Source: Jimgerdemannia flammicorona (Eukaryota). From it: 20,000 nt of DNA. Positions 1 through 20,000 of the stretch are shown piece after piece (within the stretch, counting starts at the first letter, position 1; every line of letters begins with the position of its first letter). The translations under genes and the position numbers were made by a program. The notes beneath the pieces were generated by a model. It did not search any database and was not told where the DNA came from. It saw only the letters and a program-made list of their open reading frames with translations. The stretch is from positions 45,256 through 65,255 of the forward strand of contig RBNJ01000011.1 of NCBI GenBank assembly GCA_003990765.1, read 5' to 3'.

Positions 1-850
1 TGTGTACCTTGGGCAGAGCATGAAACACGGGTAGCTTACAATTGATGGGCTCCATGAGGTGTTCCCAAATCGGCATACAATTATGATTACCGATGCAGAA
101 CTCGAGTAGACCAAGAAGGTCTAGCCTCACTGATTCCTTAACGTTATCAATCGTAGAGGGATCATACACATACGCAGGATCGTGAAGGAGAGACCGAAGA
201 CCGTCGAGATATAGAGCGCACGGTATAACGGTGAACCCCAGATTTTTGTCAGTAAGACAGACAGTGAAGTCGTCATGAGTATGGATGCCTTTAAGAAGGC
301 GGCGGAACTTCTTCGGTACAAGCACGCCGGACACATTCGTCGTGGGTCGGACAGCTTGATTCAAAGCGGCACTCATATGGAGCATAATTTGCATATTTTC
401 CATACAATGCGGCGGTCACCATTTAGATGGCACCCAGGCAGAGATCTCCAGGACGTCGTCAGGATTACCCATAGAGGTCCAGAAGGTGGCAAGGTCGAGA
501 CGCCGTTGGAACGACGACAACGAAATCGGGTCGATGGTGCTGTTCATCGATGCCGACCCGGGGAGAACGAACTTAGGGCCAAAGTTCAGCATATACGTGA
601 GCTCGGGGGTAAGCCAAGGCAGAGGTATATTGGTAACAAAGCCCTCCTTGGTAAACATCCGAAACCGAGGGACGAAAAACTGACTTAAGCAAGAACCGGG
701 AAGAGAAGACACGAAGGCAAAATCTTCAATTGGTGTCGAGGCCGCTACCCCACGTGGAATGGGGACATCAGGGCCAAACCACACTGCCAGGAAGTCGTAT
801 AAGACTTCCGGGCTGGGGACCTCTAGTTTTTCGACGCTAGAGGGCAGGCA
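1..850 (-). pseudogene. 5' part of the PLE RT ORF in the inverted copy, with an in-frame TGA at 416-418; truncated by the window edge
   Basis: Mirror of 4325-5174. Encodes LNFGPKFVLP, FQRRLDL and LPVFHALPKVH. Confidence 0.8.
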
Positions 851-1983
851 TCACCGGCGTTATGCCAGATGACATGATGTTTAGCGGCAGTACACTTGTT
901 GCACTGCGGCACAAATGCCCTGGCGGTGCTCTTAGACGAGCGGCTCGAAGTCGACGAGCGGCTGGTCCCGGTAGAAGCAGAAGAAGCAGACGGGGAAGGC
1001 GAAGCCTTACGTGCTCGCTTGACCCCTTTTACAGAACCCTCGGTCACAGCCGGGGCTAGGGGGCAAGGACCTCGGTGGGCCTTTGTAGGCACACCAAGGC
1101 GTCCAGAACAGCTATGGCAGTTCGGCGCAACAGAAGCCGAGGTCACCTTCACCTCCTTCACCTTTCCCGCAGCCCCCGCAGGCGCGGCAGTAGAGGGTAG
1201 GGGGGTGGGGACACTCTTTTTCGGTCGGGCGGAACCGGCGGCAGCAGAAGCAAATGTGCGTTTGGCACCTGGAGTAACAATCTCGGGGCGCTTCCCAAGC
1301 TCCTCAACTGCGGCTTTGCGGGCGGCAGCGGAAATCCCATCTTGCAGGGAGGAGGACACAGAGGCTATCGGGCAGACAGCAGCGGCAGCGGCTTTGGCAG
1401 CGGCGGTGGCGGCGAGACGGTGAGACTGATGCACGACAACGTCAAAACCACGGAACAAGAACAAGTTTGTCTTAGCTCTGTCAGTGGCAGCAAGGGTAGC
1501 GATATTCTTGGCTACCCCAAGAGTGATATCGACCGATACACCAAAAAATTGATGGGCATTGGAAGAACCACCCATGGCCTTGTCGATTTTAGCATGCTGG
1601 TCCTTAGTATGCTGGGCGGCAGCTTCCTGATCAGAAATGGCAGCCTCGATCGCGGCAGTGGCACGGTGCTTAGCTTCTGCCAAAGCAGTAGTAAGGGCGG
1701 CATCATGCTGTTCCTCAGGTAGGAGGGCGATGGCAGCAGCTACCTTCTTGGAAGGAGTAAACCTCCAATCGGCAACTTGGGCCCATAGGAAATCGGCACA
1801 GCATTCTTTCGCGGCGGCGACCTCAAGGGCGGAGAGCACTCCGGTGCAAGCAGCACGGAAGTAGGTAGGGACCTCGGCAGACGTGGCAGCAACGTAGGCT
1901 GCAAGGTTGTCGAACTCTGCCAAATCGGCGAAGGAAGCTTTGGGGATGGCAGCATCGCCATCTATATTCATATTATCTATCAT
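823..1983 (-). CDS. PLE ORF1, 386 aa, intact: Ala-rich helical N-terminus, basic/Ser-rich linker, two CCHC-type Zn-binding motifs (gag-like nucleic-acid-binding protein)
   Basis: ATG lies 6 nt downstream of the pLTR end. Motifs CHSC-x10-H-x3-C and CNKC-x9-H-x5-C. Homologous copies at 3192-4352 and 17686-18844. Confidence 0.8.
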   Translation of the reverse strand: MIDNMNIDGDAAIPKASFADLAEFDNLAAYVAATSAEVPTYFRAACTGVLSALEVAAAKECCADFLWAQVADWRFTPSKKVAAAIALLPEEQHDAALTTALAEAKHRATAAIEAAISDQEAAAQHTKDQHAKIDKAMGGSSNAHQFFGVSVDITLGVAKNIATLAATDRAKTNLFLFRGFDVVVHQSHRLAATAAAKAAAAAVCPIASVSSSLQDGISAAARKAAVEELGKRPEIVTPGAKRTFASAAAGSARPKKSVPTPLPSTAAPAGAAGKVKEVKVTSASVAPNCHSCSGRLGVPTKAHRGPCPLAPAVTEGSVKGVKRARKASPSPSASSASTGTSRSSTSSRSSKSTARAFVPQCNKCTAAKHHVIWHNAGDACPLASKN

Positions 1984-2487
1984 GTTGTGTATTATAAAAC
2001 GAGTAGATAATAGCGGAAGAGGTTTGAGCGAGATGTGATACTGTTACGGTGGATATGAAGGTCAGCAGTAAAAGGTCAAACAGTTATGAAAAGCTTATGT
2101 GAATTTTCATGACGGAACAGAAAGTGGAATAAAGTGTTTTCCGAAGCAAGGTGCAATAGATCTGCAACCCGCCCACGGCACCGCAGTTTGCGATGGTCTT
2201 TATTCAATTTGAGAAACAAAGTTCGGATAAACAAAGACACGGATCTAACCCCGGAATTCCGGAATTGGACAGGTGCATAAGTACCCGAGCCTTGCCCCGA
2301 TCCAAACAAAGGTCTGAATCGGGCTTCGTTGATCTATACACGTGACGGGCCATTAAAAACCCGATATATAAACAATCGGAAAAAGGTACCGGTCACATGA
2401 TCTAATGTTACACAATCAGTAAACAATGCCAAAAACGGAACTAGACCAATGACGCAACACGTGTCGTCACGTGATTGTCACTTATAG

Positions 2488-3185
2488 GTTTAAAAACGCG
2501 AAAAATCGCCGGACAACCTCTGGCGCGAGGCTCTAGGCCTGACGCCTGCGTACCTACGCTCTGTGACACCTGTCTACCTCCACTCGCTTCGCTCGCTCTG
2601 GTGTCGAGGCTCTACTCCGCTCTGGTCATGAGGCTCTAGGCCTGACGCCTGCGCCTTCGGGTGCCGACGATTTTTAGGTTTTTAAACCTATAAGTGACAA
2701 TCACGTGACGACACGTGTTGCGTCATTGGTCTAGTTCCATTTTTGGCATTGTTTACTGATTGTGTAACATTAGATCACGTGACCGGTACCTTTTCCCGAT
2801 TGTTTCTATATCGGGTTTTTAATGGCCTGTCACGTGTGTAGATCGACGAAGCCCGATTCAGACCTTTGTTTGGATCGGGGCAAGGCTCGGGTACTTATGC
2901 ACCTGTCCGATTCCGGAATTCCGGGGTTAGATCCGTGTCTTTGTTTATCCGAACTTTGTTTCTCAAATTGAATAAAGACCATCGCAAACTGCGGTGCCGT
3001 GGGCGGGTTGCAGATCTATTGCACCTTGCTTCGGAAAACACTTTATTCCGCTTTCTGTTCTGTCGTGAAAATTCACATAAGCTTTTCATAACTGTTTGAC
3101 CTTTTACTGCCGACCTTCATATCCGCCGTAACAGTATCACATCTCGCTCAAACCTCTTCCGCTATTATCTACTCGTTTTATAATA
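2488..3185 (+). repeat. 5' pseudo-LTR (698 bp)
   Basis: Direct repeat of 6386-7083. Starts GTTTAAAAACGCG and ends TTTTATAATA; no TG..CA termini. Confidence 0.92.
2700..2836. promoter_or_regulatory. Cluster of four CACGTG (E-box/bHLH-type) motifs plus ATTGG in the pLTR; probable promoter
   Basis: CACGTG at 2702, 2712, 2776 and 2831, about 350-490 bp upstream of the ORF1 ATG. Repeated in the other two young pLTRs, each with one site mutated. Confidence 0.45.
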
Positions 3186-3191
3186 CACAAC

Positions 3192-4352
3192 ATGACAGAT
3201 AATATGAATATAGATGGCGATGCTGCCATCCCCAAAGCTTCCTTCGCCGATTTGGCGGAGTTCGACAACCTTGCAGCCTACATTGCTGCCGTGTCTGCTG
3301 AGGTCCCTACCTACTTCTGTGCTGCTTGCACCGGAGTGCTCTCCACCCTTGAGGTCGCCGCCGTGAAAGAACGCCATGCTGATTTCCTACGGGCCCAAGT
3401 TGCCGATTGGAGGTTTACTCCTTCCAAGAAGGTAGCTGCTGCCATCGCCCTCCTACCTGAGAAATAGCGTGATACCGCCCTTACTACTGCTTCGGCAGAA
3501 GCTAAGCGCCGCGCCACTGCCGTGATCGAGGCTGCCGTTTCTGATCAGGAAGCTGCCGCCCAGCATGCTAAGGACCAGTGTGCTAAAATCGACAAGGCCA
3601 TGGGTGGTTCTTCCGATGCCCATCAATTTTTTGGTGTATCGGTTGATATCACTCTTAGGGTAGCCAAGAATATCGCTACCCTTGCTGCCACCGACAGAGC
3701 TAAGACAAACTTGTTCTTGTTCCATGGTTTTGACATTGTCGTGCGTCAGTCTCGCCGTCTCGCTGCCGCCGCCGCTGCCAAAGCCACTGCTGCTGCCATC
3801 CGCCCGATAGCCCCTGCGTCCTCCTCCCTGCAAGATGGGATTTCCGCCGCCGCCCGCAAAGCCGTAGTTGAGGAGCTTGGGAAGCGCCCCGAGATTGTTA
3901 CTCCGGGTGCCAAACGCACATTTGCTTCTGCTGCCGCCGGTTCCGCCCGACCGAAAAAGAGTGTCCCCACCCCCCTACTCTCTACCGCCGCGCCTGCGGG
4001 GGCTGCGGGAAAGGTGAAGGAGGTGAAGGTGACCTTGGCTTCTGTTGTGCCGAACTGCCGTAGCTGTTCTGGACACCTTGGTGTGCCTACAAAGGCCCAC
4101 CGAGGTCCTTGCCCCCTAGCCCCAGCTGTGACTGAGGGTTCTGTAAAAGGGGTCAAGCGAGCACGTAAGGCTTCGCCTTCCCCGTCTGCTTCTTCTGCTT
4201 CTACCGGGACCAGCCGCTCGTCGACTTCGAGCCGCTCATCTAAGAGCGCCGCCAGGGCATTTGTGCCGCAGTGCAACAAGTGTACTGCCGCTAAACGTCA
4301 TGTCGTCTGGCATAACGCCGATGATGCCTGCCCTCTAGCGTCGAAAAACTAG
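3192..4352 (+). pseudogene. PLE ORF1 interrupted by a premature TAG at 3465-3467
   Basis: The 91-aa and 276-aa ORFs are in one frame and together match the 386-aa ORF of the inverted arm, where this codon is CAG. Confidence 0.88.
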
Positions 4353-6355
4353 AGGTCCCCAGCCCAGAAGTCTTATACGACTTCCTGGCAGCGTGGTTTG
4401 GCCCTGATGTCCCCATTCTACGTGGGGTAGCGGCCTCAACACCAATTGAGGATTTTGCCTTCGTGTCTTCTCTTCCCGGTTCTCGCTTAAGTCAGTTTTT
4501 CGTCCCTTGGTTTCGGATGTTTACCGAGGAGGGCTTTGTTACCGATATACCTCCGCCTTGGCTTACCCCCGAGCTCATGTATATGCTGAACTTTGGCCCT
4601 AAGTTTGTTCTCCCCGGGTCGGCATTGATGAACAGCACCATCGACCCGATTTCGTTGTCATCGTTCCAATGGCGTCTCGACCTTGCCACCTTCTGGACCT
4701 CTATGGGTAATCCTGACGACGTCCCGGAGATCTCTGCCTGGGTGCCATCTAAATGGTGACCGCCGCATTGTATGGAAAATATGCAAATTATGCTCCATAT
4801 GAGTACCGCTTTGAATCAAGCTGTCCGACCCACGACAAATGTGTCCGGTGCGCTTGTACCGAAGAAGTTCCGCCGCCTTCTTAAAGGCGTCCGTACTCAT
4901 GACGACTTCACTGTCTGTCTTACCGACAAAAATCTGGGGTTCGCCATTATACCGCGCGCTCTATATCTCGACGGTCTTCGGTCTCTCCTTCACGATCCTG
5001 CGTACGTGTATGATCCCTCTATGATTGATAACGTTAAGGAATCAGTGAGGCTAGACCTTCTTGGTCTACTCGAGTTCTGCATCGGCGATCATAATTGTAT
5101 GCCGATTTGGGAACACCTCATGGAGCCCATCGATTGTAAGCTACCCGTGTTTCATGCTCTGCCCAAGGTACACAAAGGAGCTCGCGTGGCATGGCACCCT
5201 ATCGTTGGTGCGTTTAACTCTCCTACGACCGAGATTTCGCGTTTCCTATCTCGCTTTCTCCATCTGTGGTCGGCCCATCTGCGCCATAATGTGGGTTACT
5301 CCCGTTATTCACCTTTACGTGATACGCTCGAACTGCTTCAATTGGTTCGATCGGATTACCTTGACATGTCAGATTGCTCATACGTTGCTACTGGAGATTT
5401 CGCCGCCTTCTACACCAGGATCACATTAGATGAGTGCATCGACTGCCTCACCTTTTTGTCGATGGTGGCCTTCCCCCCTGGCTCTTTGCCACTTGAAGCC
5501 GTTCTCGGCCTTATCCGCATAGTCATGACTCGTATGACGTTTACATCCGCCATCAGTTCCTTCCGCTCCGTGACTGGTATTGCTATGGGCACTAATTGTG
5601 CTCCGGATCTTGCCAATCTTGTTGGTTTCGCTCATGAGTTGCACGCCTCGCAAGCGCCCGATCATCTGCTTAGCCGAGCCGTCGCTGCCGGGCTAAAGTT
5701 CCGCCGGTATATTGATGATCTTATCATCTTTACGCCCGCGATTATGGACTTGGCCTTGATCTTTGCTGCCGTGTACCCTCTGCACCATCGTATCGAATGG
5801 GAAGTCTTGTCCGCCGGACCGTGCCATTACTTAGACCTGGAAATCCGAGTCACACCGTTCCGCACAGGCCACTTTGCCAAGTTCCCGCGTAGTACTCAGT
5901 TTGTCGACTGGTTGAGCAATCATCCTAGGAAGACACTCTGTCTATGCATTGTAAATGAGGCCCGCCACCTTTCGCTTCTCTGCTCTTCTCGCCGTGATTG
6001 GCTTGATGAGTGTCGGTCTTTGGCCGAGTTCCTGGTTCACAGGAAAGGATACCCTGTTGATGTTGTAACCGCTCAATTGAGTTTGGTTGATTGGCTTGAG
6101 GTCCGAACTTCACTTCTCACCCCTCCTCTTATTTCCCACCCCCCCATCCCCCACTCCGCTTTTCCTCCCCTGTTGCTTGTCGTCCAATATGACACGGCCC
6201 GATGGCTACATCAACAGCCCGACAAGACTCTACATACCGCTTTGCTTCGTTTTGGTTTCCCTGTGACTGCCTGACAACCGATCATCGCCCGAAAGAATGG
6301 TTTTACCATTCTTAATGCTGTCTCAAACACCAGCTTCGCTTTAAGTCCTCCTTGA
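4325..6355 (+). CDS. Penelope-like reverse transcriptase (ORF2); longest open part 4772-6274 (500 aa), in-frame TGAs at 4757 and 6272, no GIY-YIG domain
   Basis: PLE N-terminal motifs LNFGPKF and TDKNLG. Core motifs FHALPKVHK..WHPIV, GDFAAFYTRI, GIAMGTNCAPDLANL, RYIDD, YLDLEI and SNHP. A PLE-like C-terminal segment PIIARKNGFTILNAV lies after the 6272 TGA. The frame is open from 4325 and overlaps the ORF1 end in the -1 frame. Confidence 0.88.
4343..4389 (+). promoter_or_regulatory. Candidate -1 ribosomal frameshift signal (G_AAA_AAC before the ORF1 stop, plus a downstream hairpin)
   Basis: TCG AAA AAC TAG ends ORF1 inside the ORF1/ORF2 overlap. GAAGTC-ttatac-GACTTC stem at 4367-4384 (GGAAGTC/GACTTCC in the inverted arm), extendable by GCC/GGC. 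The old copy reads A_AAA_AAA TAG. Confidence 0.6.
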
Positions 6356-6385
6356 AGGCCGCACCGCTTGTACGTGCCGTGCGAT

Positions 6386-7083
6386 GTTTAAAAACGCGAA
6401 AAATTGCCGGACAACCTCCGGCGCGAGGCTCTAGGCCTGACACCTGCGTACCTACACTCCATGACGCCTGTCTACCTCCGCTCGCTTCGCTCGCTCCGGT
6501 GCCGAGGCTCTACTCCGCTCCAGTCGCGAGGCTCTAGGCCTGACGCCTGCGCCTTCGGATGCTGACGATTTTTAGGTTTTTAAACCTATAAGTGACAATC
6601 ATGTGACGACACGTGTTGCGTCATTGGTCTAGTTCCGTTTTTGGCATTGTTTACTGATTGTGTAACATTAGATCACGTGACCGGTACCTTTTCCCGATTG
6701 TTTCTATATCGGGTTTTTAATGGCCCGTCACGTGTGTAGATCGACGAAGCCCGATTCAGACCTTTGTTTGGATCGGGGCAAGGCTCGGGTACTTATGCAC
6801 CTGTCCGATTCCGGAATTCCGGGGTTAGATCCATGTCTTTGTTTATCCGAACTTTGTTTCTCAAATTGAATAAAGACCATCGCAAACTGCGGTGCCATGG
6901 GCGGGTTGCAGATCTATTGCACCTTGCTTCGGAAAATACTTTATTCCACTTTCTGTTCTGTCATGAAAATTCACATAAGCTTTTCATAACTGTTTGACCT
7001 TTTACTGCCGACCTTCATATCCGCCGTAACAGTATCACATCTCGCTCAAACCTCTTCCGCTATTATCTACTCGTTTTATAATA
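6386..7083 (+). repeat. 3' pseudo-LTR followed by an A11 tail
   Basis: Direct repeat of 2488-3185, with an A-run to 7093. Confidence 0.92.
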
Positions 7084-7093
7084 AAAAAAAAAA

Positions 7094-7144
7094 CAATGGT
7101 TGATTCGAATCAATCCAGATTAAATTGACTCATTAGGAGCACTA
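7094..7144. mobile_element. Terminal fragment of a hAT-like TIR element/MITE abutting the PLE tail
   Basis: Ends ...ACTCATTAGGAGCACTA, matching the termini of the 9588-10011 element (TAGTCCTCCAAAATGAGT / GGGAGCACTA). Confidence 0.6.
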
Positions 7145-7660
7145 TTATCAAGTTATCCAATATTCCCAGAGAGTCTGCCAATTCAGAAGAATCTATGTCA
7201 AACTAAGTTATCTACCAAAACTAAGTTATCTGAGTTATTAAATCAAATTTCCCACTAAATACAAAATACTACTAAGATCATTATACTGAAATCATATAAG
7301 GAAACTACCAAATTATCAGACTGATCTATATGAGGAACTCACTTATACTATATAAGAGATTATTATATAAAAATTATATACTTTTAGAAGATTATGTACT
7401 ACTACTTAAGAAAGAAACTACTAAATTAGTAAATCACTATATTATACTAAATCACCACTATATCTAAGAACTATTCCAATAAAGAAATTGACATACAAAT
7501 ATATAACTATATTCAGATTTAACTATTATACTACTAAATACTAAGTACCTTAAGAATTATAAAATATTTTATTGCTTTTTAACAAAATAACTAGAGGCTC
7601 AAGTCAAACTATATCAATTCTCAACTTTGTAATTTGTCTCTATTGAGCTAAGTATATTAT
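7145..7660 (+). repeat. 3' half of a decayed Gypsy LTR
   Basis: Homologous to ~13980-14441 (aagttatctacc repeats; taactagaggctcaag...aatttgtctc.attgagc.a.gtatatta). Confidence 0.8.
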
Positions 7661-8021
7661 TCTAGTGTCAAATATTATAGAGCTAGATATTATAATTTTT
7701 AAATATATAATATAAAGTTATTAATATTATTTTTATAAGCAAATTCTATAAGCTTATAATAATCAATAGCAAAATTTACATCTTTGCAAATTATATGATA
7801 TTGTATTCAAATAATGCAACATTATATAAAAGAATGCTAGAAGCTATATACAATCTTTAATATTACTTCAATATAGTCTTTTAATATAGTAAATACTGCT
7901 TATATTTAATTACTAGTATAAAAATTATTTTTCATATCTTAATAATGATTTCAGTCTTAATAATCTGTTTTTAGAAATTGAAACATCAACTAATGATAGT
8001 TTAACTGATAATATTATTCTA

Positions 8022-8120
8022 GAAGTCAATATACCTATTAATAATAATATTTCAGAAATCAATATACCAACTATCAATATAAGTATAGAAATCAATATAT
8101 TAACTATTGATAACAATACT
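8022..8120 (+). repeat. Degenerate 33-bp tandem repeat, 3 copies
   Basis: GAARTCAATATA at 8022, 8055 and 8088. Confidence 0.55.
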
Positions 8121-8559
8121 ATGAAAATTAATCAATAATATAAGTCTGAAATATATTATATCAAATAAAATATAAAACTAGAGATTGATATATCTAATAG
8201 TAATATATTTTTGACAAATCTCTATAATTGAAAATCTTTAACTCAATTAAATCAGTAGTATGGTATTCTTTATTTGTTTAGATTTATTATCTATAATATA
8301 TTGATAATAGTTTTAGAGAGTAGATTATTATAATATAAAGTCAAGAGATTATTTAAAGAAGATTTCTTACTATTCTTTAAATATTCACAATAATTAAATA
8401 AATATTCTCTTTGGTAATATAACTTTCTTCTCCTTATCTTTATTATAAATATTATTATCTATCTTTTCTTCTATTTTCTTTAGATATAGTGCTTAAATTA
8501 TCTTTATATTATATACTTATAAAAGGACTATAGAGAAGCTTAATGAGATAGTAGTATAT

Positions 8560-9587
8560 TATAATGTGCCTGACTCAATGGAGGTAAATTATAAGATTGG
8601 GAGTTGGTGTAGTTTGACTTGAGCCCCTAGTTACTTTATTAAAAGTAATAAAATATTCTTAGTATTTAGTGGTACATATAATAGTCAAAGCTGGATATCT
8701 GTGAGTAATTTGTGTATCAATTTCCTAATTGGGATAGTTCTCTGGGTATAGTAGTAATTTGTGTAAATGGGTTTCCTTCTTGGATCAATTTGAGAATTAG
8801 TAGAATTCATATATAGTATGATGATCTCCAAAAGTATATGATTTCTGGTATGATGATCTTAGCAGATCTTTTTATATAGATTTGATGAATAACTCAATTT
8901 GGTGTAGATTTACTGAAATAGTAGCTTACTGGGAATTATACTGGTAGTGGGTTCTTCAAATTGGGCTTACTGGGAACAATAACTCAGATATTACAGATTC
9001 TTCTTAACTGACAGCTTCAACTGGGAATATGAATAGCTGACAGCTTTGGAAAGAGTCTCTTGTCAAAGTTACATCAAAGACTAACTTTGTTTATATAACA
9101 GATCACTGTGAAGTTATATCAGAAACTGGCTTAAGTAAGGCAGCTTTCTTTTAGGCTTTCTGAGAATGTAAAGAATAACTTGGAAATGGCAGCAAAGTTC
9201 TTCCTTGAACTTTGATAGCAAACTTGGATTCTTTAGGCTTATCTGGTAAGTATATCAATAGTGTAGCTTATTTCTTAAGTAGCAGGTTCTTCAGGCTTAG
9301 TCTGGTAAGCATACTAATAATTTCAAAGGCAGCAAAGTTCTTCACTTAAACTTGGTAGCAAAATCAGCTTTATATTAGAAAGTGGACCAGAGTGGAGAAA
9401 TAAGCTCACAATCTCATAGTAGTGGCTATAGAGTTTCTTTTGAAGTATGGTAGGCAGACTTGTTTTTTACTTCAATTTCAGTTTATATAGTTGTAGTTAC
9501 TACAGATTACTATATTGCTAACTATAGATTGCTAACTATAGTACATAAGTATTCCTTGAGGGTACAGTGTATCTTAAGAGTATAATA
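8560..9587 (-). repeat. Gypsy LTR copy in reverse orientation, lacking its 5' ~170-190 bp
   Basis: Reverse complement homology to ~13530-14441 (e.g. 8560-8670 versus 14331-14441; aagaactttgct motif; ggaatacttat). Confidence 0.8.
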
Positions 9588-10011
9588 TAGTCCTCCAAAA
9601 TGAGTTGAATCAATTCGAATTGAATCAAATTGAGGGTTAAATGAGTCAAATCGAATTGGGGATTTTTCAATTCAAATCAATTCAAATCAAATCAAAAGTC
9701 AAATCAAATTGAGGGTCTGATTCAAACCCTAAATTTCAAAATGCAATAACTCAGCGTAAACCCATTCAAATCTAACATACTTTAGCTTGTTAGAATCACA
9801 TTAATACGGTGAATCTAACAAGCTAAAATACGTTAAATTTGGATGAGTTTTCGTCGAGTTATTACATTTTGAAAATTAAGATTTGAATCGAACTTCAAAT
9901 CAAATTGGACCTTTGATTTGATTCAAATCGAATTGAATTGGACCCTTGATTCGATCGAATTGAATCGAGTTTGGGCCAAATTCAATTTAATTCAATTTAT
10001 TGGGAGCACTA
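9588..10011. mobile_element. Palindromic non-autonomous TIR element (MITE/foldback, hAT-like TAGT termini), 424 bp
   Basis: Imperfect TIRs TAGTCCTCCAAAATGAGTTGAA / TTCAATTTATTGGGAGCACTA. Subterminal AATTG/AATCA/TTCAA pentamer arrays. Long central hairpin at ~9731-9877. Confidence 0.75.
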
Positions 10012-10499
10012 GACCAGGTTCTCCTTCCTCATCAAGAACCCCTGCCTCATCTGGCTATTAGCTATCACATTTCTTTTTTTTTTTCCTAATTCTCCATCAT
10101 ACTCTTATCAACAGTTACTCCCCTAGCCACAGCACCCCCAATATCTATGCCCACATCCCCACCTGAGTACCACTCTCCCTTCTGATACTAGTTTTGTCCT
10201 TCCCTTCAGCAGTACCAGCCCTAGTTCTAGCTGGCCATTCACTCACCTTTATCTTGTCTGCAAAGCTAGAGGGGCCAGACTCTCCCTCAGTTCCTCCTGA
10301 TACCAGTCCTTCTCCAGAGCCTTCTCTATCCTTCAACCCTCCAAAAGCCCCCATCTCCAGTCTATAACCTCTCCCCACATTCTGCCAGCCAAATACCCTG
10401 AGTCTACCTGATCCAGTACACTCATCAGAACTCTTGCTGGATGACATTTTTATAGTACCTTTTCTCTAAGTTGTATCGAAAACCATTACTTGAAGTTGG

Positions 10500-12800
10500 T
10501 ATAACATGAATTATATAGGAGAAAGGTATGATTACCTAAAGATATTTGAAAAGGAGTATATTTAAGAACTCTTGGACAATAGAGTCACCTGACCCTCTAC
10601 TAGTCCTTGGGCCAGTTCTATACTTATTGTATCAAAGAAAGGAGGATGAAGACTCTGTATAGATTACAGAAAACTCAATTCAGTAACTGAAAAGAATATC
10701 TATCCTTTGCTTAGAATTGATGACCTTTTGGACCAATTATAAGATACCAGATACTTCAGCAGTATAGACCTTTTGCAGGATTCTATAAGATCCCTATAGA
10801 CCCAAAAGACATTCAGAAGACAGTCTTTCTTGCTCTAGAAAAACTGTTTAAATACCTCTGAATACCCTTTGGACTTTGCAATATACCTCCCACCTTCTAG
10901 AAAATGATGAATTCAGTCTATATCTCTCTGATCCACTACTGCCTAATTGTATATATGGATAATTCAAACATCTATTCAGTAAATTTCAAGAAACATCTAT
11001 ACTATCTAGAAGAATTCTTTAAGCTCACTCACAAAAACCACCTAAGACTCAATACTAAGAAATGCTACTTTGGGAAACAGAAACTTGAATTCCTTAAATT
11101 TATAGTTTTGAAAGAAGAAATCCATACAGACCCAAAGAAAACTGAGAAGATCAACAATTGGCCAGTATCCAAGACTCCAAAGGAAATACTATACTTTCTA
11201 ATACTAGTATTCTTCTACAGAAGGTTTATTAAGGACTTTGCCTAAATTGCTATCCCAATTTGAATCTTTCTCAAGAAAGAAATATCTTATAAATAGACAG
11301 AATCACAAGAACTAGCCTTCAAAGAACTCAAGCACTACATAACTATAGCACCAATCCTTGTATACCCCAATCTACAGAAGCCATTCATCTTATATATAGA
11401 TACTTTCAAGAATAGCCTGAGAGTCATCTTAGCTCAAGAAGGATCTGATCAATAGTATCATGTGATAGCTTATATAAGTCAAGCTACCAATTAGTAGTAA
11501 ATAAATTATGGCAGCACTAAATTGGAATGTCTTGCAGTCATATGAGCAGTTACTCTGTTCAAGCATTACTTTATCAGAAAAAGATTCACTCTGATAACAG
11601 ATCATATAGCTATTCAACTATAAGAAACCTATCAGAATCCTAGCCTGCTGGATTCTTATCCTCTAGGATTACAAAATCACCATCATTTATAAAGCAGAGA
11701 AAGCTTACAATAATATTGATGTACTTTCTCATCAACTCTAATAAACCAGAAGAAAGGTGTCTCAAGGAACTATACTCTAAAGGAAGCTTCTCTAACCATC
11801 AAGATACAAGAAGACCTCATCTGAAAAGAACATCAGAAAGTCTATTAAGGACAGACAAATATAGAAGAAAAGCTATGAACAATATATCAACATTAGCTCA
11901 ATCTCAGAAGACAAGTCCAGGATATACTCAAGAAATATGATATCTATCAGAAGTACTAAGAAAGAAAGAACCACCAAGCACTATTATAACCAATTATACC
12001 ACTAGACAATATCTTTCAAAAATGAGTAGATATAATTGGACCTCTATCAGTACACTAAGAAGAAACAAGTATATTCTTATATTTGTAGAATATCTGACCA
12101 AGTGGCCTGAGGCTTTTTCTATAGAAATTACAGATGTCTTAACTATTGTAGACCTTCTCCATAGACTCACTCTCAGATATAAACTCTCAGAAGAACTTAT
12201 CTCTGACTGAGGTACAGAATTCATCAACAACATAATTATAAGTTATGCCTGAATTCACAAGATCTATCTCAAATAGACTATATCATATTACTCTTAGACC
12301 AATGGTATAATAGAAAAAATAAACTAAACTATAAAGAAAGAACTTGTCTAAGTCAATTCTACCAACTGAGATCTCTGCTTATCTGAGATCTTATGGGAAA
12401 TCTGGAACACCCCTGCTGCCTTTATCAAATAAAAGTCATTCAAAATGATATTTATCAAGAAAACTAGAACTGCTGACTATGAGAATCTCAGAGACCTCCT
12501 CAAGAAGGCAGAACTGTTACATAATCAAACATAAGTTCAGATTATCAAAGTTTAGGAAAGACAAAAGAAGTACTATGATCAAAAGTAAAAGGATTAGGAG
12601 ATCAAGATTATAGATCAAGTACTAGTTTGGAAAAGTATAATTGAAACAAATTTTGCTGCCAAACAAGAGCCCAAATGAAAAAGATCTTATCTTATATACA
12701 ATATCAGAGGAACTAGTATCTATTTAAGAAGTATAAATAGACAAACTCTCAGGACACCAGTACACATCAATTACCTCAAGATATATATCTCTCTCTACTA
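10500..12800 (+). pseudogene. Decayed Ty3/Gypsy pol (RT - RNase H - integrase)
   Basis: [27 protein letters not shown] (from 10602), [24 protein letters not shown]. RNase H: PFILYID, NYGSTKLECLAV, FTLITDH. Integrase: NKYILIFVEYLTKWPEAF, LISD*GTEF, TNGIIE, VHINYLK. Many stops and frameshifts. Confidence 0.92.
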
Positions 12801-13352
12801 TAAACTAGACAATTGACCAGTATCTCCAGACCCTTATCCTGAGTTCATTCTAATCTCTCTCAGTTCTCCTTCTACAATTCTGATAAGTCAATGGAAACCC
12901 CCTCCAGCAAATCCAGATTCATCAGAAGAATCTCATCCTGATCAGATATTTACTGCAAGTCTACCAGCTACAGGTCTACTATATAATTAGAGAACAATTG
13001 CAGAACCTTCTAGCAGCAGACCTAACCTACATCAGGAACTCCACTGGCTTCACTCAGAAAAACAACATTGCTGTAGACAGATTGTATATAATCTATAAAC
13101 AAAACATTCTAGCACTGATATAGGCCCAATTCTCTCTAAATGATATACAAAATATGAATTCCACTACCTACTAAAGTATCATCAACTATATTGAGATCCT
13201 GTTCTCAGAGAAAGAAGAAGAATCTGTCAAGTGGAGTAACTCTGATCTAAATGAAGATACTGGTTCAGATATTGATGCTGAAGATACTTATGTATATTAA
13301 AATAATGACTAAAGTATAGTCTGAGAATAGACTATCTTTTAGTGGAAGTTGA

Positions 13353-14441
13353 TATAATGAGTAACAGAATTGTACTGCCAAAAATTATAAATTAGCTATA
13401 TATCATATTTAGTATACTAAGCAACTAAGACTGCTTTACTATGTTAACTTATATAATTAGCCAGAGATATCAGAAACAGTATGTTTATCTATACCAAGTA
13501 GATATGTATACTATACTAAGTGGGTATACTATACTGAGTGGATATACTATATCATCTAGGAATACTTATTATAGATAGTAATCTATAGTTAGCAATATAG
13601 TAACTAGATAGCAACCAGAACTATATAAAATATTCCAGAGACAAGAGTGAATAAACTTTAGTCTGAAAAGTTGAAGTAAACTAAAAAAAACCTTTAAAGA
13701 TTGATTGATATACTTGCTAGATAAGTCTAAAGAAATCTGTCAAGTTCAAGAAAGAACTTTGCTATCTTTTGAAGAATTTACTATTTAAGGAAAAGCTATT
13801 ATTGTTAAGGAAGTCTGCTATATTTTATCCACTATCTGGCCACAAAGTCTGTCTGTTAACACAACTTTACAGTAAACTCATTTGCATAAATAAAGTCAGT
13901 CTTTAATATAACTTTACTAAGAAGAAGAAAATCTGAGTTATTATTCAAGAATCCAACTGATTCAGGAAGAATTCATACTATCTAAGTTATCTACCATTCT
14001 TAGAAGAACTGCTAAGTTATTATTCTCAGTAAGTCTGATTCAGACCAAAACTAAGTTATCTACCAAATCAAGTTATCTACCAGAAATTACATACTTTTGG
14101 TAATTACTACCACTTAAGGAGAAAACTACTAAATTGCCAGATTATCATACATAAGGAACTCACTGTACTACATAGAGATCATTATGCTATATAAGATATT
14201 GTCATGCTGAAATTACATATTTTGGAGAATACTTATATTATATATAAAATTACTGCTATATCTAGAGAACTATCTCAATAAGGAAATTGATATACAAATT
14301 GACTGCTGTATTCAGATTAACTATTATATTACTAAATACTAAGAATATTTTATTACTTTTGACAAAGTAACTAGAGGCTCAAGCTAAACTACATTAACCC
14401 TCAACCTTATAATTTGTCTCCATTGAGCCAGGTATATTACA
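13353..14441 (+). repeat. 3' LTR of the Gypsy element (~1.09 kb)
   Basis: Follows a purine-rich tract (agtggaagttga, 13341-13352). Begins TATAAT (probably decayed TGTAA..) and ends ..ATTACA. Two further copies are in the window. Confidence 0.75.
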
Positions 14442-15685
14442 ATATAATATATATTTTCTAATTAGAGAAGATTATTTTTATAACTATTTAAATAAATTAT
14501 ATAATTGATATAATTATCTGCAAAATTATATAATAGTATTTAGGGTCTGAAAGAAATATATGTATTAGTAAAATATAATAAAAAGATCTCATAGTCAAAA
14601 CTATTTTTCTACTAAGATATCTATTATAAAATTATATATATATATATATTAGTCAATATAGAGTATTATATTATATTTAAAATATAAATATATATATATA
14701 GTAATATATAGCTATACCTTAGTAGTAATGATATATATTTATTATTCTAATATTTGATATCTAGAGTGATCTAGCAGCTAATATTTCTAGATATACTAGA
14801 ATAGAATCAATTACTTATAATTGAATATCTTTGTTCATTGAGTCTAGAATTGTAATAAATAGTCTATTCCTTATATTGTAATCAGATATAGGCAAATTTG
14901 TCTATAAAAAATTTAATTTAAAATTTTTAAATTTTTTTTTTTAATATAATATATTTTTTTTTATTATTATTAAATATATAAATAATAGAGGAAAATGTTA
15001 TATTGAGATATAATACTGATATGGTAGATATAAAGATCAGCAGTAAGAGTCAAGTAGATAGAAATAAAAAAGCTTATATAAAATTTTATAATAGAGTAAG
15101 AAAGTAGAATAAAGTATTTTCTGAAGCAAGATATAATTGATCTGTAACCCACTATTGACACCACAGTCTGTGATAGTCTTTATTCAAATTTGATAATAAG
15201 GTTTGATTATAAGAAACATAGATCTAATCTCAGAATTCTGGAATCAGAATAGTGTATAAGTTCCTAAATCATTACTCAATCCAAACAAAAGTCTGAATTG
15301 GTCAATATTAATCTATGCATGTGACAGATCATTAAAAACTCAATATAGAAATGATCAGAAAAAGGTACTAGTTATGTGATCAAATATTATATATATATAA
15401 ATAATACCAAAAACAGAACTAGACCAATGATAGTTATGTAATTGTCACTTATAGAGTTTAAAACCTAAAAATCATTAGCACCTAAAGATACAGGCATAAG
15501 GCCTAGAGTCTTATAACTAGAGCAGAGTAGAGTCTTGATACTGGAGCAAGTAAAGTAAGCAGAGATAGACAGGTATTATAGAGTATAGATATACAGGTGT
15601 CAGGCCTAGAGCCTCACATTGGAGGTTGTCTAGCAATTTTTTTGCATTTTTAAACATTGCACAGCATATATGGACAGTACAGTCT

Positions 15686-17713
15686 TCAAAGAGAACTTAG
15701 AGTAAAACTAGTATTTGAGATAGTATTAAGAACAGTAAAACCATTCTTTTAGATAATGATTGGTCATCAGATAGTTGCAGAGAAATCAAAATGAAGTAAA
15801 GTAGTATATAGAGTCTTGTCAGGCTATTGATATAGCCATTAGGCTGTATTATATTAGATAACAAGCAATAGAGAAGGAAAAGTGGAGTAGGGAATAGAGG
15901 GGTGGGAAATAAGGAGAGGGGTTAAAAGTAAAGTTCAAATCTCAAACTAGTCAATCAAACTCAATTGAGTGATTATAATATCAACAGGGTATCCTTTTCT
16001 GTAAACCAGGAATTTGGCTAGAGACTAATACTCATTAAGTTAATTATGGTAAAATGAGTAAAGTAGTAATAGGTGGTAGATCTCATTTACAATATATAGA
16101 TATAGTATCTTTCTAGGGTAATTGCTCAATCAGTTGACAAGCTGAGTACTTTATGAAAATTTGGTAAAATGACCTATGCAGAATGGTGTGACTCAGATTT
16201 TTAGGTCCAAGTAATGATACAGCCCAGCAGATAAGACTTTCTATTCAATATGATAGTATGGAGAGTATATAGCACTGAAGATCAAGATTAAGTCTATAAT
16301 TGTAGATGTAAAGATAATTAAGTCATTGATAAACCAGCTGAACTTTAGCCTAGCAGCTATGACTCAACTAAGTAGATAATTAGGTATTTGTAAGGTATAT
16401 AATTTATAAGTGAAACCAATGATATTAGTAAGATCTAAAGTATAATTGGTACCTATAGTAATGTCAGTAATGAGTGAAAGGAACTAATAGCAGATGTAAA
16501 TATCATATGAGTCATGACTATGTAAATAAGGCCTAGAATGGCTTCAAGCAGCAGAGAGCTAGAGAGAAATACTATGGTCAACAGAAAGATGAGATAGTTG
16601 ATGCACTCATCTAGTGTGATCCTGATATAGAATATAGCAAAATTCCCAGTAGTGATGAGACAGCAATCAGATACATCCAAGTAATCTAATTGAACTAATT
16701 GTAAAAGTTTGAGCATATTATACAGAGGTAAATATCATAAATAATCCACATTATAGTATAGATAGACTAACTACAAATAGAGAAAGTAAGATAGAAAATA
16801 TGAAATCTCAATTATAGGAGAGTTACATAAATACTCTAATGATAGAGTATCATACTATGTAAGCTCTTTTGTATACCTTGGGTAGAGTATAAAACACAGG
16901 TAGCTTATAATCATTAGGTTCTATAAGGTGATCCCAGATCAGCATACAACTTGAATTTCTGATACAGAACTCCAATAGACTCAATAGATCTAACCTCACT
17001 GATTCCTTAATATTATCAATTATAGAGAAATAATTCACATATACAGGATTGTGAAAGAGAGACTAAAGACCATCAAGATACAGAGTATATAAAATAATAA
17101 TAAACTTCAGATTTTTGTTAGTAAGATAAACAGTAAAGTCATCATAAGTATAGACATCTTTAAGAAGACATCAAAACTTCTTCAGTATAAGTATACTAGA
17201 TATATTTGTTATAGGTCAGATAGCTTGATTCAACATAGCACTAATATGATGTATAATTTGTATATTTTCTATATAGTATAGTAGTTACCATTTAGATGAT
17301 ACCCAGGTAGAGATCTCTGAAATATCATCAGAATTACCTATAGAGGTCTAGAAGATGACAAGGTCAAGACACTGTTGGAATGACAATAATAAAATTAGAT
17401 TGATGGTACTATTCATCAATATCAACTCAGAGAGAATAAACTTTGAGCCAAAGTTCAGCATATACATGAGCTTGGGGATAAGCTAAGATAGAGGTATATT
17501 AGTAACAAAGCTCTCCTCAGTAAACATCTAAAACTGAGGAATGAAAAACTGACTTAAGTGGGAGCTGAGAAGAGTAGATACATATAAAGACAAAATCCTG
17601 AATTGGTATCAAGACTGCTACTCTATATAGAATGGGGACATTGGGGCCAAACCATGCTAATATAAGACATCCAGGCTGGGGATCTCTATTTTTTTGAAGC
17701 TAGAGGATAGATA
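15686..17713 (-). pseudogene. Decayed PLE reverse transcriptase
   Basis: Remnants KLPVFYTLPKVYK and TGNFAIFYIRITLDEC. YIDD has decayed to FIND at ~16323-16334. Confidence 0.88.
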
Positions 17714-18844
17714 TTATCAGCATTATACTAGATGATATAATATTTAGTAGCAGTATATTTATTGTATTGTGGTACAAATACCCTAGTGGTGCTCTTAGAT
17801 GAGTAGCTCAAAGTTGATGAGTAGCTGGTTCTAGTAAAAGTAGAAAAAACAGATAGGAAAAGAGAAGTTCTTTATACTCTCTTGGTCTCTTTTATAGAAC
17901 CCACTGACTTAGTAGGGGCTAGGGGGCAAGGATCTCAATGGATCTTTATAGACATACTAAGGCATCCAGAACAGTTGTAGCAGTTCAGTATAGTAGAGGC
18001 TAAAGTTATACACACCACCTTTATCTTTTCTATAGCCTTTGCAGATATGGCAGTCAAGAGTTGGATATTGAAGATACTCTTTTTCAGCTAAGTGGAATCA
18101 GTAGCAGTAGAAGCAAATGTACATTTGGTACCTAGAGTAACAATCTCAAAATACTTCCCAAGCTTTCAACTAGGACTTTATGGGTAATAGTGGTAATCTC
18201 TTTTTGAAGAGATGAAGATGTAGAGACTGTTGAGTAGACTACAGCAGTAGCAGCTTTAGCAGTAGTGATAGTAGCAAGATAGTGAGATTGATACATAATA
18301 ATATCAAAATTATGAAACAGAAACAAGTTTGTCTTGATTCAGTCAGTGGCAGTGAGGGTGATAATATTCTTACTAGCCTTTTGGGCAGTATTAGTAGGAA
18401 GCCCAAAAAAGGTGAGTGCTTCTAAGATACTTCTATGACTTTGTCAATTTTAGCATACTGGTCCTTAGCATGCTGAGCAGTAGTATTATTATCAGTTGTG
18501 GCAGTCTTGATTGTAGCTTTGGCATGGCACTTGATTTCTATAGATGCAGTAGTAAGGGTGGCATCATACTATTTCTCTGGAAGGAGGGCAATTATAGTAG
18601 CAATCTTCTTAGAAGGGGTAAACTTTCAATTAGCAAGTTGGGCCTACAGAAAGTCAGCATGGTACTCATATGTGATAGTCACTTTAAGGGCATGAAGTAC
18701 TCTAGTATAAGTAGCATAGAAGATAGTGGGGACCTCAATGGAAGAGATAGCCAAATAGATAGCCAGATTATCAAATTTCATCAAATTAGTAAAAGAAGTG
18801 ATGGGGACAGCAGTATTGCCATCTACATTCATGTTATCTATTAT
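17686..18844 (-). pseudogene. Decayed PLE ORF1
   Basis: Remnants MNVDGNTAVPITSFTNL..FDNLAIY and LFLFHNFDII; the start ATG is mutated to ATA. Confidence 0.85.
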
Positions 18845-19873
18845 GTTGTATATTATTAAATATGTAAATAATAGAGAAAAATGTTATATTGAGATATGAT
18901 ACTGATATAGTAGATATGAAGGTTGGTAGTAAGAGTTAAGCAGATGGAAACAAAAAAGCTTATGTGAAATTTTATGACAAAGCAAGAAAGCAGAATAAAG
19001 TATTTTCTGAAATAAGATACAATTGATCTATAACCCACTATTGGCACCACAGTCTGTAATAGTCTTTATTCAAATTTAATAATAAAGTTTGATTATAAGA
19101 AATACAGATCTAAACTCAGAATTCTGAAATCAGAATAGTGTATAAGTTCTCAGACCATTACTCAATCCAAACAAAAGTCTGAATCAGTCAATGTTGATTT
19201 ATACACATAACAGGCCATTAAAAATCCAATATAGAAATAATTGGAAAAAGGTACTAGTTATATGTATGATCAAATGTTACACATATATAAACAATACCAA
19301 AAATAGAACTAGACCAATAATAGTTATGTGTAAGTATGTAATTATCACTTATAGGTTTTAAAACCTAAAAATCATCAGTACTCAAAGGTGCAGATATCAG
19401 GCCTAGAGTCTTACAACCAGAGCAGAGTAGTATCTTAGCACTAGAGCAAGTAAAGCAAGTAGAGGTAGATAGGTATCACAGAGTATAAATATGTAGGTAT
19501 TAGACCTAAAGCCTTACACTGAAGGTTGTCTGGCAATTTTTAGAGTTTAAAACCTATAAGTGATAATCATATACTTATATATGACTATCATTGATCTAGT
19601 TTCATTTTTGATATTATTTATATATATATGTATAATATTTGATCACATGACTGGTACCTTTTCCTGATCATTTCTATATCAGATTTTTAATGGCCTATTA
19701 TGTGCATAGATTGACATTGATCAATTCAGACTTTTGTTTGAATTGGGTAATAGTCTAGAAACTCATATACTATTTCAATTCTGGAATTCTAGAGTTAAAT
19801 TCATATTTCTTGTAATCAAATCTTATTATCAAATTTGAATAAAGACTATTACAGACTATGGTGATAGCAGGTT

Positions 19874-20000
19874 TGTAAGAGGGTTGCTTTTTAGGGTAAC
19901 CGTTACGTAGTTCTGGAAGGGTTTTCTGGAAGTTCTGGATATTCTGGAAGACCGTTTTCCTATGGTCAAGATCAATTTCGTATGGAGTACGTCCTCTACG
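19874..20000. mobile_element. Start of a younger insertion, probably an LTR (TGTAAG...)
   Basis: PLE homology stops at ~19873. The sequence then begins TGTAAGAGG, retains CpGs and has repeated TTCTGGAA motifs. Confidence 0.5.

Follow-up and report, generated by a model that had tools for sequence, protein, structure and literature searches.

The 20,000-nt stretch of Jimgerdemannia flammicorona contig RBNJ01000011.1 (positions 45,256 to 65,255; hereafter the window) carries two loci of one retroelement family, which are compared here, and each of them is probably a 3.9-kb, A-tailed, endonuclease-less Penelope-like element (PLE) in the Penelope layout. At both loci, the order of the segments is an inverted arm A', a hairpin segment of ~200 nt (SL), a segment of ~500 nt (A, of which A' is the inverted arm copy), open reading frame 1 (ORF1), ORF2, a second SL, a second A and an A-run, where SL plus A makes up a pseudo-long terminal repeat (pseudo-LTR). 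As far as their sequences can tell, the two loci were confirmed as independent insertions of two diverged subfamilies. The head-to-head junction recurs at the same hairpin in both, and the mechanism that best explains it, on the strength of these two copies, is probably the copy-back of first-strand complementary DNA (cDNA) at the hairpin at each insertion.

The GC-rich young copy (2179-7096) and the AT-rich old copy (14955-19873, minus strand) are colinear, including the inverted arm, the 180-nt segment at the junction, both direct repeats and the A-run tail. Self-BLAST joined 2179-7093 with 19863-14955 in a single colinear block (71.9% identity over 4953 columns, E=0), a similarity far above chance. 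The young pseudo-LTR is a 698-nt direct repeat (2488-3185 and 6386-7083, 96.6% identity by self-BLAST), and its old counterpart joins 14941-15641 with 18828-19541 (83.5% over 715 columns). An inverted-repeat search recovered the young arms at 1-2504 and 2671-5174 (96%, 166 nt apart) and the old arms at 19283-19372 and 19536-19625 (86% complementary, 163 nt apart), the latter being extended by self-BLAST to 19045-19372 and 19863-19536 (80.5% over 333 columns, E 4e-82). Part A abuts the ACACAAC-ATG of ORF1 without a gap, and the 3' ends of the young and old elements (...TTTTATAAT and ...TTTAATAAT, respectively) fall at the same nucleotide to within 3 nt, followed by A11 and A9. The features of the two elements are as follows.

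1-2497, minus strand: young inverted upstream arm, with A' at 1985-2497, an intact ORF1' at 823-1983 (386 aa) and the start of ORF2' at 2-835; it leaves the window at its edge.
2488-2687, plus strand: young head-to-head junction, which is the predicted SL hairpin at the 5' end of the upstream pseudo-LTR, with cores GTTTAAAAAC and GTTTTTAAAC.
2678-3185, plus strand: part A of the young upstream pseudo-LTR, with four CACGTG motifs, terminating in ...TTTTATAAT ahead of ACACAAC-ATG.
3192-4352, plus strand: young ORF1, with an internal stop in the right-arm copy and intact in the left-arm copy; it overlaps ORF2.
4340-6274, plus strand: young ORF2, a reverse transcriptase (RT) with motifs TDKNLG, LPKVHK, AMGTN and YIDD and one in-frame stop.
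6386-7085, plus strand: young downstream pseudo-LTR, composed of SL (6386-6585) and part A, 96.6% identical to 2488-3185.
7086-7096, plus strand: young A11 tail, the 3' end of the element.
14956-14964, minus strand: old A9 run (T9 on the plus strand), the 3' end of the element.
14965-15655, minus strand: old downstream pseudo-LTR, with part A at 14965-15454 and SL at 15455-15655.
15656-18850, minus strand: old body, with a decayed ORF2 at ~15770-17705 (23 stops) and ORF1 at ~17693-18853 (8 stops).
18851-19354, minus strand: part A of the old upstream pseudo-LTR.
19355-19553, minus strand: old head-to-head junction, the predicted SL hairpin (180 nt plus two cores).
19545-19873, plus strand: old inverted arm A' of ~320-329 nt, followed from ~19864-19874 by unrelated sequence that keeps its CpGs.

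The original prediction, which was made from the letters of the window, placed the end of one old arm at 19355-19364 and the start of the other at 19545-19553 around a 180-nt spacer, and these positions proved exact to the base: the cores GTTTTAAAAC (19355-19364) and GTTTAAAAC (19545-19553) have exactly 180 nt between them, and the young cores GTTTAAAAAC (2488-2497) and GTTTTTAAAC (2678-2687) likewise enclose the 180 nt of 2498-2677. The homology claimed between the two 180-nt segments also holds, with the four SL copies aligning at 86% mean column identity. However, "spacer" is too neutral a word for a segment that is predicted by RNA folds and RNAalifold to be a long imperfect hairpin forming the 5' end of the 698-nt pseudo-LTR. 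The RNA fold of 223 nt at the young junction reached -99.1 kcal/mol (z -8.3), that of the internal SL copy at 6376-6598, which has no flanking arms, -77.3 kcal/mol (z -3.2), and the minus-strand DNA fold at the young junction -55.2 kcal/mol (z -7.9). A long stem of 63 pairs is retained across the four SL copies in the RNAalifold model, in whose foot GTTTAAAAAC-GCG-AAAAATCG pairs with CGATTTTT-AG-GTTTTTAAAC, giving a 10+8-bp inverted repeat. Transversions between the subfamilies number 6 per 250 nt in SL against 18-20 per 250 nt in part A.

The SL hairpin also holds two direct copies of a quasi-palindromic repeat, and the 17-mer GAGGCTCTAGGCCTGAC, centred on AGGCCT, lies in direct repeat inside SL at 2527-2543 and 2630-2646, and again at 6425-6441 and 6528-6544. 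In part A, four CACGTG motifs occur within the first 160 nt (2702-2836) and three in the 3' pseudo-LTR (6610-6734); these motifs may serve to bind proteins or as promoters.

The complete A-tailed copy includes SL in colinear order, the inverted arm lacks it, and this arm starts at the SL foot in both insertions. The point of crossover, by contrast, differs between the two. In the young junction, the sequence is of arm type through GTTTAAAAAC and of pseudo-LTR type thereafter (GCG AAAAAT...), whereas the old junction keeps the arm type through GGTTTTAAA..CT.AAAAAT and becomes pseudo-LTR type only after it (TGCCAGACAACC, TGCC...). The start of the old internal pseudo-LTR is of the young type except for transitions and the length of an A-run; the old junction departs from the pseudo-LTR type by several transversions and an indel within 19 nt and from the arm type by ~2 changes. 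These differences are read as the traces of two separate switches, which would have taken place in one stem foot at points ~12 nt from each other. The junction thus recurs at one structural landmark, and a random template switch is therefore disfavoured, as the original prediction had proposed; the further term "programmed" is well supported for two copies and stops short of proof.

The global alignment of the young and old elements spans 4947 columns and contains 1354 substitutions, which comprise 1019 changes from young C/G to old T/A, 119 reverse transitions and 216 transversions, together with 62 gap columns in 24 events, the longest of 11 nt. The indels and non-transition changes by which the old copy was first said to differ are therefore present, but most of the differences are transitions, and the CACGTG region described as shorter in the old element is shortened by only 1 nt in two of its copies and by 11 nt in the third. 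C-to-T hypermutation, either like repeat-induced point mutation (RIP) or of a methylation type, accounts for about 75% of what separates the two copies; it has lowered the GC content from ~0.5 to ~0.3 and affected 0.55-0.77 of the CpG sites, 0.39-0.53 of CpA, 0.24-0.31 of CpC and 0.13-0.19 of CpT. Between the two young arms, 83 of the 104 transitions lie at CpG, unlike the CpA-type RIP of Neurospora, and this preference suggests either a RIP-like process biased towards CpG or deamination driven by methylation.

It is the remaining changes that bear on whether the two insertions are independent. The transversions are distributed over codon positions 1/2/3 as 8/7/33 in ORF2 and 17/13/38 in ORF1, while the transitions in ORF2 number 164/112/168, and because of this third-position bias, the transversions are considered to have gathered in active lineages under purifying selection before the old copy died. 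The six A copies have 340 columns in common, of which 47 show a gap or a change of purine/pyrimidine class. Fixed differences between the three copies of the young element and the three of the old one make up 23 of these, and two more show this pattern inside a private deletion. In no column do the two inverted arms stand together against the direct copies; in one TA-microsatellite column, the old inverted arm joins the young copies. Since the transversions are third-position-biased and the fixed differences are common to all three repeat copies of each element, two independent insertions of two once-active subfamilies are indicated, in agreement with the original prediction, and since the latter differences are common to inverted and direct A copies, each inverted arm was made from the template of its own element. 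The 3' flanks of the two loci are unrelated in self-BLAST.

The age of the young arm can be read from its divergence. Arm against arm, 104 transitions and 2 transversions were counted in 2504 nt, and pseudo-LTR against pseudo-LTR, 24 transitions and no transversions in 698 nt; because arm-arm divergence equals pseudo-LTR divergence, the young inverted arm dates to the insertion. It is at least 2497 nt long, and the old arm is ~329 nt long, its homology stopping at 19863 in BLAST and perhaps extending by eye to ~19873. The adjoining 19874-20000 contains 6 CpGs in 127 nt, has a GC content of 0.43, is open in two minus-strand frames and starts with TGT..., like the end of a long terminal repeat (LTR); it is either unique host DNA or a younger insertion.

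By its motifs and layout, the element is read as an endonuclease-less PLE, because ORF2 carries DKN-type RT motifs and no endonuclease was found. ORF1 (386 aa) matched no Pfam family. Its end, GAAAAAC-TAG, overlaps ORF2 in the -1 frame; at 4337-4352, ORF1 closes with ...TCG AAA AAC TAG, and the opening of ORF2 falls on these very bases. Directly ahead of the stop, GAAAAAC forms a near-canonical -1 slippery heptamer, which suggests that ORF1 and ORF2 might be fused by frameshifting, and parts of an earlier survey state that ORF1 may be split from the RT frame by a frameshift in endonuclease-deficient PLEs (PMC8557442). The in-frame stop of ORF2 at 4757-4759 is common to both young arms, and an in-frame stop is also mentioned for PLEs with an endonuclease (EN+) in passages of PMC3846280 and PMC8557442.

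ORF2 matched Pfam RVT_1 weakly (E 2.3e-4, under the cut-off). A protein search returned 49 relatives, of which the best was a JGI protein (43% identity), followed by proteins of Gigaspora margarita and Racocetra fulgida (~32%), and the RT has weak relatives in Glomeromycota. The precomputed domains of these 49 homologues are RVT_1, PF26215 (HTH_animal) and PF28514 (DUF8422), and the atlas clusters nearest to the homologues are commonest in Rotifera. In an alignment with 26 relatives, TDKNLG, LPKVHK, AMGTN and YIDD are invariant or nearly so, with D52, K53, N54 and G56 at least 90% conserved and TDKNLG upstream of the other three motifs. DKG/DKN is named as the diagnostic Penelope-like motif in the relevant parts of PMC8557442 and PMC13159263. 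The element thus shows a DK(G/N) motif with a PLE-type core and thumb RT, direct pseudo-LTRs, and, in both copies, an inverted copy whose junction with the neighbouring upstream pseudo-LTR is palindromic; 5' truncation of the inverted copy is seen only in the old element, where it is possibly an interruption. Sequence and profile searches of PDB gave generic RTs only (prokaryotic in the profile search); the profile search listed no telomerase RT and no long interspersed nuclear element (LINE) RT, and its sole LTR-retrotransposon RT was that of Ty3 (E=0.18).

No endonuclease was detected by Pfam in ORF1, the N-terminus of ORF2 or the RT part, where nothing appeared past the weak RVT_1 match, and GIY-YIG (PF01541) is in none of the precomputed domain lists of the 49 homologues. 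A search for longer homologues gave one chimeric amphibian gene model, which is uninformative on endonuclease fusions. Other classes of element fit less well. A DIRS-like identity was rejected, with no tyrosine recombinase, RNase H or methyltransferase in either ORF and a 3.2-kb body that fits only ORF1 and the RT. A non-LTR (LINE) element would share the A-tail, but no endonuclease and no LINE RT among the PDB profile matches were found, and 698-nt direct repeats are present. The telomeric repeats that mark the 3' ends of Athena and Coprina are missing too: the 3' ends are A-runs, and neither TTAGGG nor CCCTAA dimers occur anywhere in the window.

For the inverted arm, we propose the following course of events. 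The RNA might owe its upstream SL-A to a promoter within the inverted arm, to tandem copies transcribed by read-through or to a template jump from 5' to 3'. Synthesis of the first cDNA strand would be primed at the A-tail and proceed back along this RNA through the upstream SL, and the nascent cDNA, now holding both halves of the hairpin, could fold at the hairpin foot. From there, the 3' end of the cDNA would be extended on the strand itself (copy-back or snap-back) over a variable distance, producing a head-to-head arm without an SL of its own, and second-strand synthesis would fix the product as an A'-SL-A inverted repeat. A cDNA complete to the SL foot would retain the GCG/AG mismatch, as in the young copy, and one that stopped ~12 nt earlier would turn the foot into a perfect palindrome, as seen in the old copy. 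The differing crossover points would be accounted for, because they would result from separate snap-backs that each began at another cDNA 3' end, and so would the presence of SL in the full copy and its absence from the arm, because copy-back of a sense-templated cDNA predicts such an orientation. We infer both the cDNA stage of the switch, during retrotransposition, and the identity of the RNA template from these features, while a promoter role for the CACGTG-rich A or the inverted arm is speculation.

Several points weigh against this account. It draws on two copies only, and the crossover positions depend on a few bases of a hypermutated old copy, whose junction could also have been perfected by repair within the DNA palindrome. 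The old arm was perhaps interrupted by a later insertion at ~19864-19874 instead of truncated, and variable arm length is therefore unproven. The 12 SL stem pairs that changed on both sides are all CG to UA and were not taken as covariation, because two-strand C-to-T hypermutation yields such changes without selection. In the passages of Arkhipova et al. 2013 that deal with head-to-head products, an antisense template is preferred (PMC3846280). Finally, no Rfam hammerhead ribozyme family was found at E<=1 within the window, and none reached the gathering score in the 20 scanned of 77 related metagenome loci; Naiads are likewise described as being without hammerheads in part of PMC8557442.

It is also conceivable that the composite of inverted arm, SL, A, body, SL and A is itself the transcribed and transposed unit, with the arm inherited via RNA, for example from a rightward promoter in the inverted A. 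The same layout in two subfamilies speaks for it, and the palindromic CACGTG motifs of part A could act both ways; bidirectional promoter motifs have been proposed for Penelope pseudo-LTRs in a portion of PMC3846280. However, the 23 fixed differences are common to the inverted and both direct A copies, so that an inherited arm would need homogenisation in each cycle, and the two inverted arms are grouped by no column. The crossover points differ as well, and so do the arm lengths, unless the old arm was interrupted. Inheritance of the whole composite thus seems rather unlikely, and regeneration of the arm at each insertion is favoured.

Short inverted repeats trigger palindrome formation, and the SL foot supplies one of 10+8 bp, from which a break or stalled fork nearby could have led host repair or replication to make the palindrome after an ordinary insertion. 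Such a DNA-level fold-back is improbable in view of the young arm, which dates to the insertion by its divergence; moreover, the event would have struck the upstream SL in both elements and never the identical downstream SL, and the old arm seems to break off within the element after ~329 nt, as a truncated cDNA would.

Two further explanations can hardly be entertained. A segmental, inverted duplication of one ancestral insertion, which the original prediction had named as able to refute it and which would suit two loci ~8 kb apart and tail to tail, is rejected by 3' flanks that fail to match in the required inverted orientation, by the differences common to the three A copies of each element, which cannot arise after duplication, and by the codon-position bias of divergence under selection; the sole repeats shared by the flanks (7214-7751 and 14044-14533) are direct and resemble the LTR pair of a decayed element of gypsy type. 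A fold-back chimera of long reads, although palindromes are cited in part of PMC8557442 as a known assembly problem for Penelope-like elements, is ruled out by arms that differ by 4.2% (young) and ~20% (old), mostly through independently accrued CpG transitions.

Taking the copy-back of cDNA further, we tentatively suggest that SL might be the built-in copy-back site of an endonuclease-less, A-tailed PLE lineage, in which each retrotransposition would rebuild an inverted CACGTG-rich copy, perhaps serving as an outward or bidirectional promoter, and the crossovers could then be the first sequence-level footprint of the self-priming step that has long been proposed for Penelope replication and is still unproven, found among fungal endonuclease-less PLEs, which are said to be without this organisation; we hold this extension to be plausible without expecting it on balance.

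Between the two PLE copies, 7214-14533 is occupied by a decayed, AT-rich LTR retrotransposon, apparently of gypsy type, with direct repeats at 7214-7751 and 14044-14533, an RT fragment (10901-11245), an integrase-like fragment (11941-12210) and an extra inverted LTR piece (8499-8760). A 273-nt near-perfect palindrome at 9668-9940, with arms of 132 nt that are 79% complementary and a 9-nt loop, is probably a foldback resembling a miniature inverted-repeat transposable element; it matched the plant microRNA precursor MIR6440 in Rfam below threshold, with 39 bits where the gathering score is 95. Amid the AT-rich decayed repeats, 10001-10500 forms an island with a GC content of 0.47 and a strong negative GC skew, which contains a 106-codon minus-strand frame at 10145-10465.

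The architecture described here is already known for PLEs, and what differs is the ~200-nt hairpin where others have a short palindrome, the tail formed by an A-run, the apparently fungal host, and the lack of endonuclease, telomeric repeats and hammerhead. How PLEs replicate and why they are inserted as tandem or inverted composites is still presented as open in the parts of PMC3846280, PMC8557442 and PMC11167929 that treat the question, later replication steps being stressed as unvalidated in a section of Frangieh et al. (PMC11167929), and the endonuclease is proposed to shape such composite structures in a passage of PMC8557442. In the present elements, the junction palindrome has grown into a hairpin that is large and conserved and can easily be mutated. 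Should the pattern apply across the genome, the formation of the inverted arm would be separable from GIY-YIG cleavage, the RT plus SL would offer a tractable template for copy-back in vitro, and the pseudo-LTR and inverted organisation would reach endonuclease-less, apparently interstitial elements in a fungus-like host.

The closest likeness is to EN+ PLEs. According to the relevant portion of Craig et al. 2021 (PMC8557442), PLEs are frequently inserted as partial tandems, which gives rise to pseudo-LTRs, and a 5'-truncated copy in inverted orientation adjoins them at the 5' end. For rotifer Penelope, excerpts of Arkhipova et al. 2013 (PMC3846280) describe an inverted pseudo-LTR that shares a 15-bp overlap with the direct one and falls 37 bp short of its length, as well as 18-bp and 38-bp palindromes at pseudo-LTR 5' ends, which were read as self-priming, possibly on an antisense template; the same excerpts say that protist and fungal endonuclease-deficient PLEs do not have the pseudo-LTR and inverted organisation. 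As far as the cited portions go, EN+ PLEs (Penelope/Poseidon, Neptune, Naiad/Chlamys; Pen2a_Av and Pen3a of Adineta vaga) share with the present element the partial-tandem pseudo-LTRs, the inverted 5'-truncated copy at the upstream pseudo-LTR, a shorter inverted pseudo-LTR, a short palindromic overlap at the 5' end, a body of 3-4 kb and an in-frame stop. Compared with them, the present element has no GIY-YIG endonuclease, a pair of ORFs overlapping in the -1 frame where they have a single ORF, a structured hairpin of ~200 nt instead of a palindrome of 15-38 bp, an A-run tail, no hammerhead found and an apparently fungal host.

Athena and Coprina, on the basis of what the cited excerpts give, resemble the present element in having no endonuclease, an ORF1 plus a DKN RT ORF and flanking direct repeats, with fungal hosts for Coprina; for example, Coprina-1_Alen of Ascochyta lentis is portrayed in part of PMC13159263 as a telomeric element with two ORFs, a DKN motif and direct repeats. 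However, they are found at chromosome ends with reverse-complement telomeric repeats and hammerheads, and PMC3846280 states that the pseudo-LTR and inverted organisation is foreign to them, while the present element shows no telomeric arrays, an A-run at the 3' end and an inverted layout of Penelope type.

The metagenome relatives of the RT comprise 77 loci of 21-30% identity, all distant and on short contigs. As 29 of these contigs have exact terminal overlaps, with units of 3.0-4.8 kb (L009, for instance, is a 3196-nt head-to-tail array), this RT clade is mostly seen as tandem arrays or circles. L014, L038 and L068 carry larger inverted repeats in layouts unlike that of the present element, L038 with outer inverted repeats and inner direct repeats around two ORFs and L014 with a ~13-nt repeat arrayed head to head ahead of an ORF of 1176 codons. 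Strong RNA structure 3' of the RT ORF showed no excess over expectation in 50 relatives (median rank 0.25, with 32% at rank <=0.1 for the best of three windows).

DIRS-like elements, which have inverted terminal repeats and an internal complementary region, are similar to the present element in their inverted repeats and in the regeneration of repeats from internal sequence, but they carry a tyrosine recombinase, RNase H and methyltransferase, none of which was detected in the ORFs here. Copy-back or snap-back products are known from the hairpin self-priming of retroviral RTs and from the copy-back defective genomes of RNA viruses. By analogy, the proposed process would resemble them in that a nascent strand folds at a hairpin and extends on itself, leaving the loop in one arm only, whereas the products proposed here would be fixed in the genome within a normal insertion and would recur at a hairpin encoded by the element.

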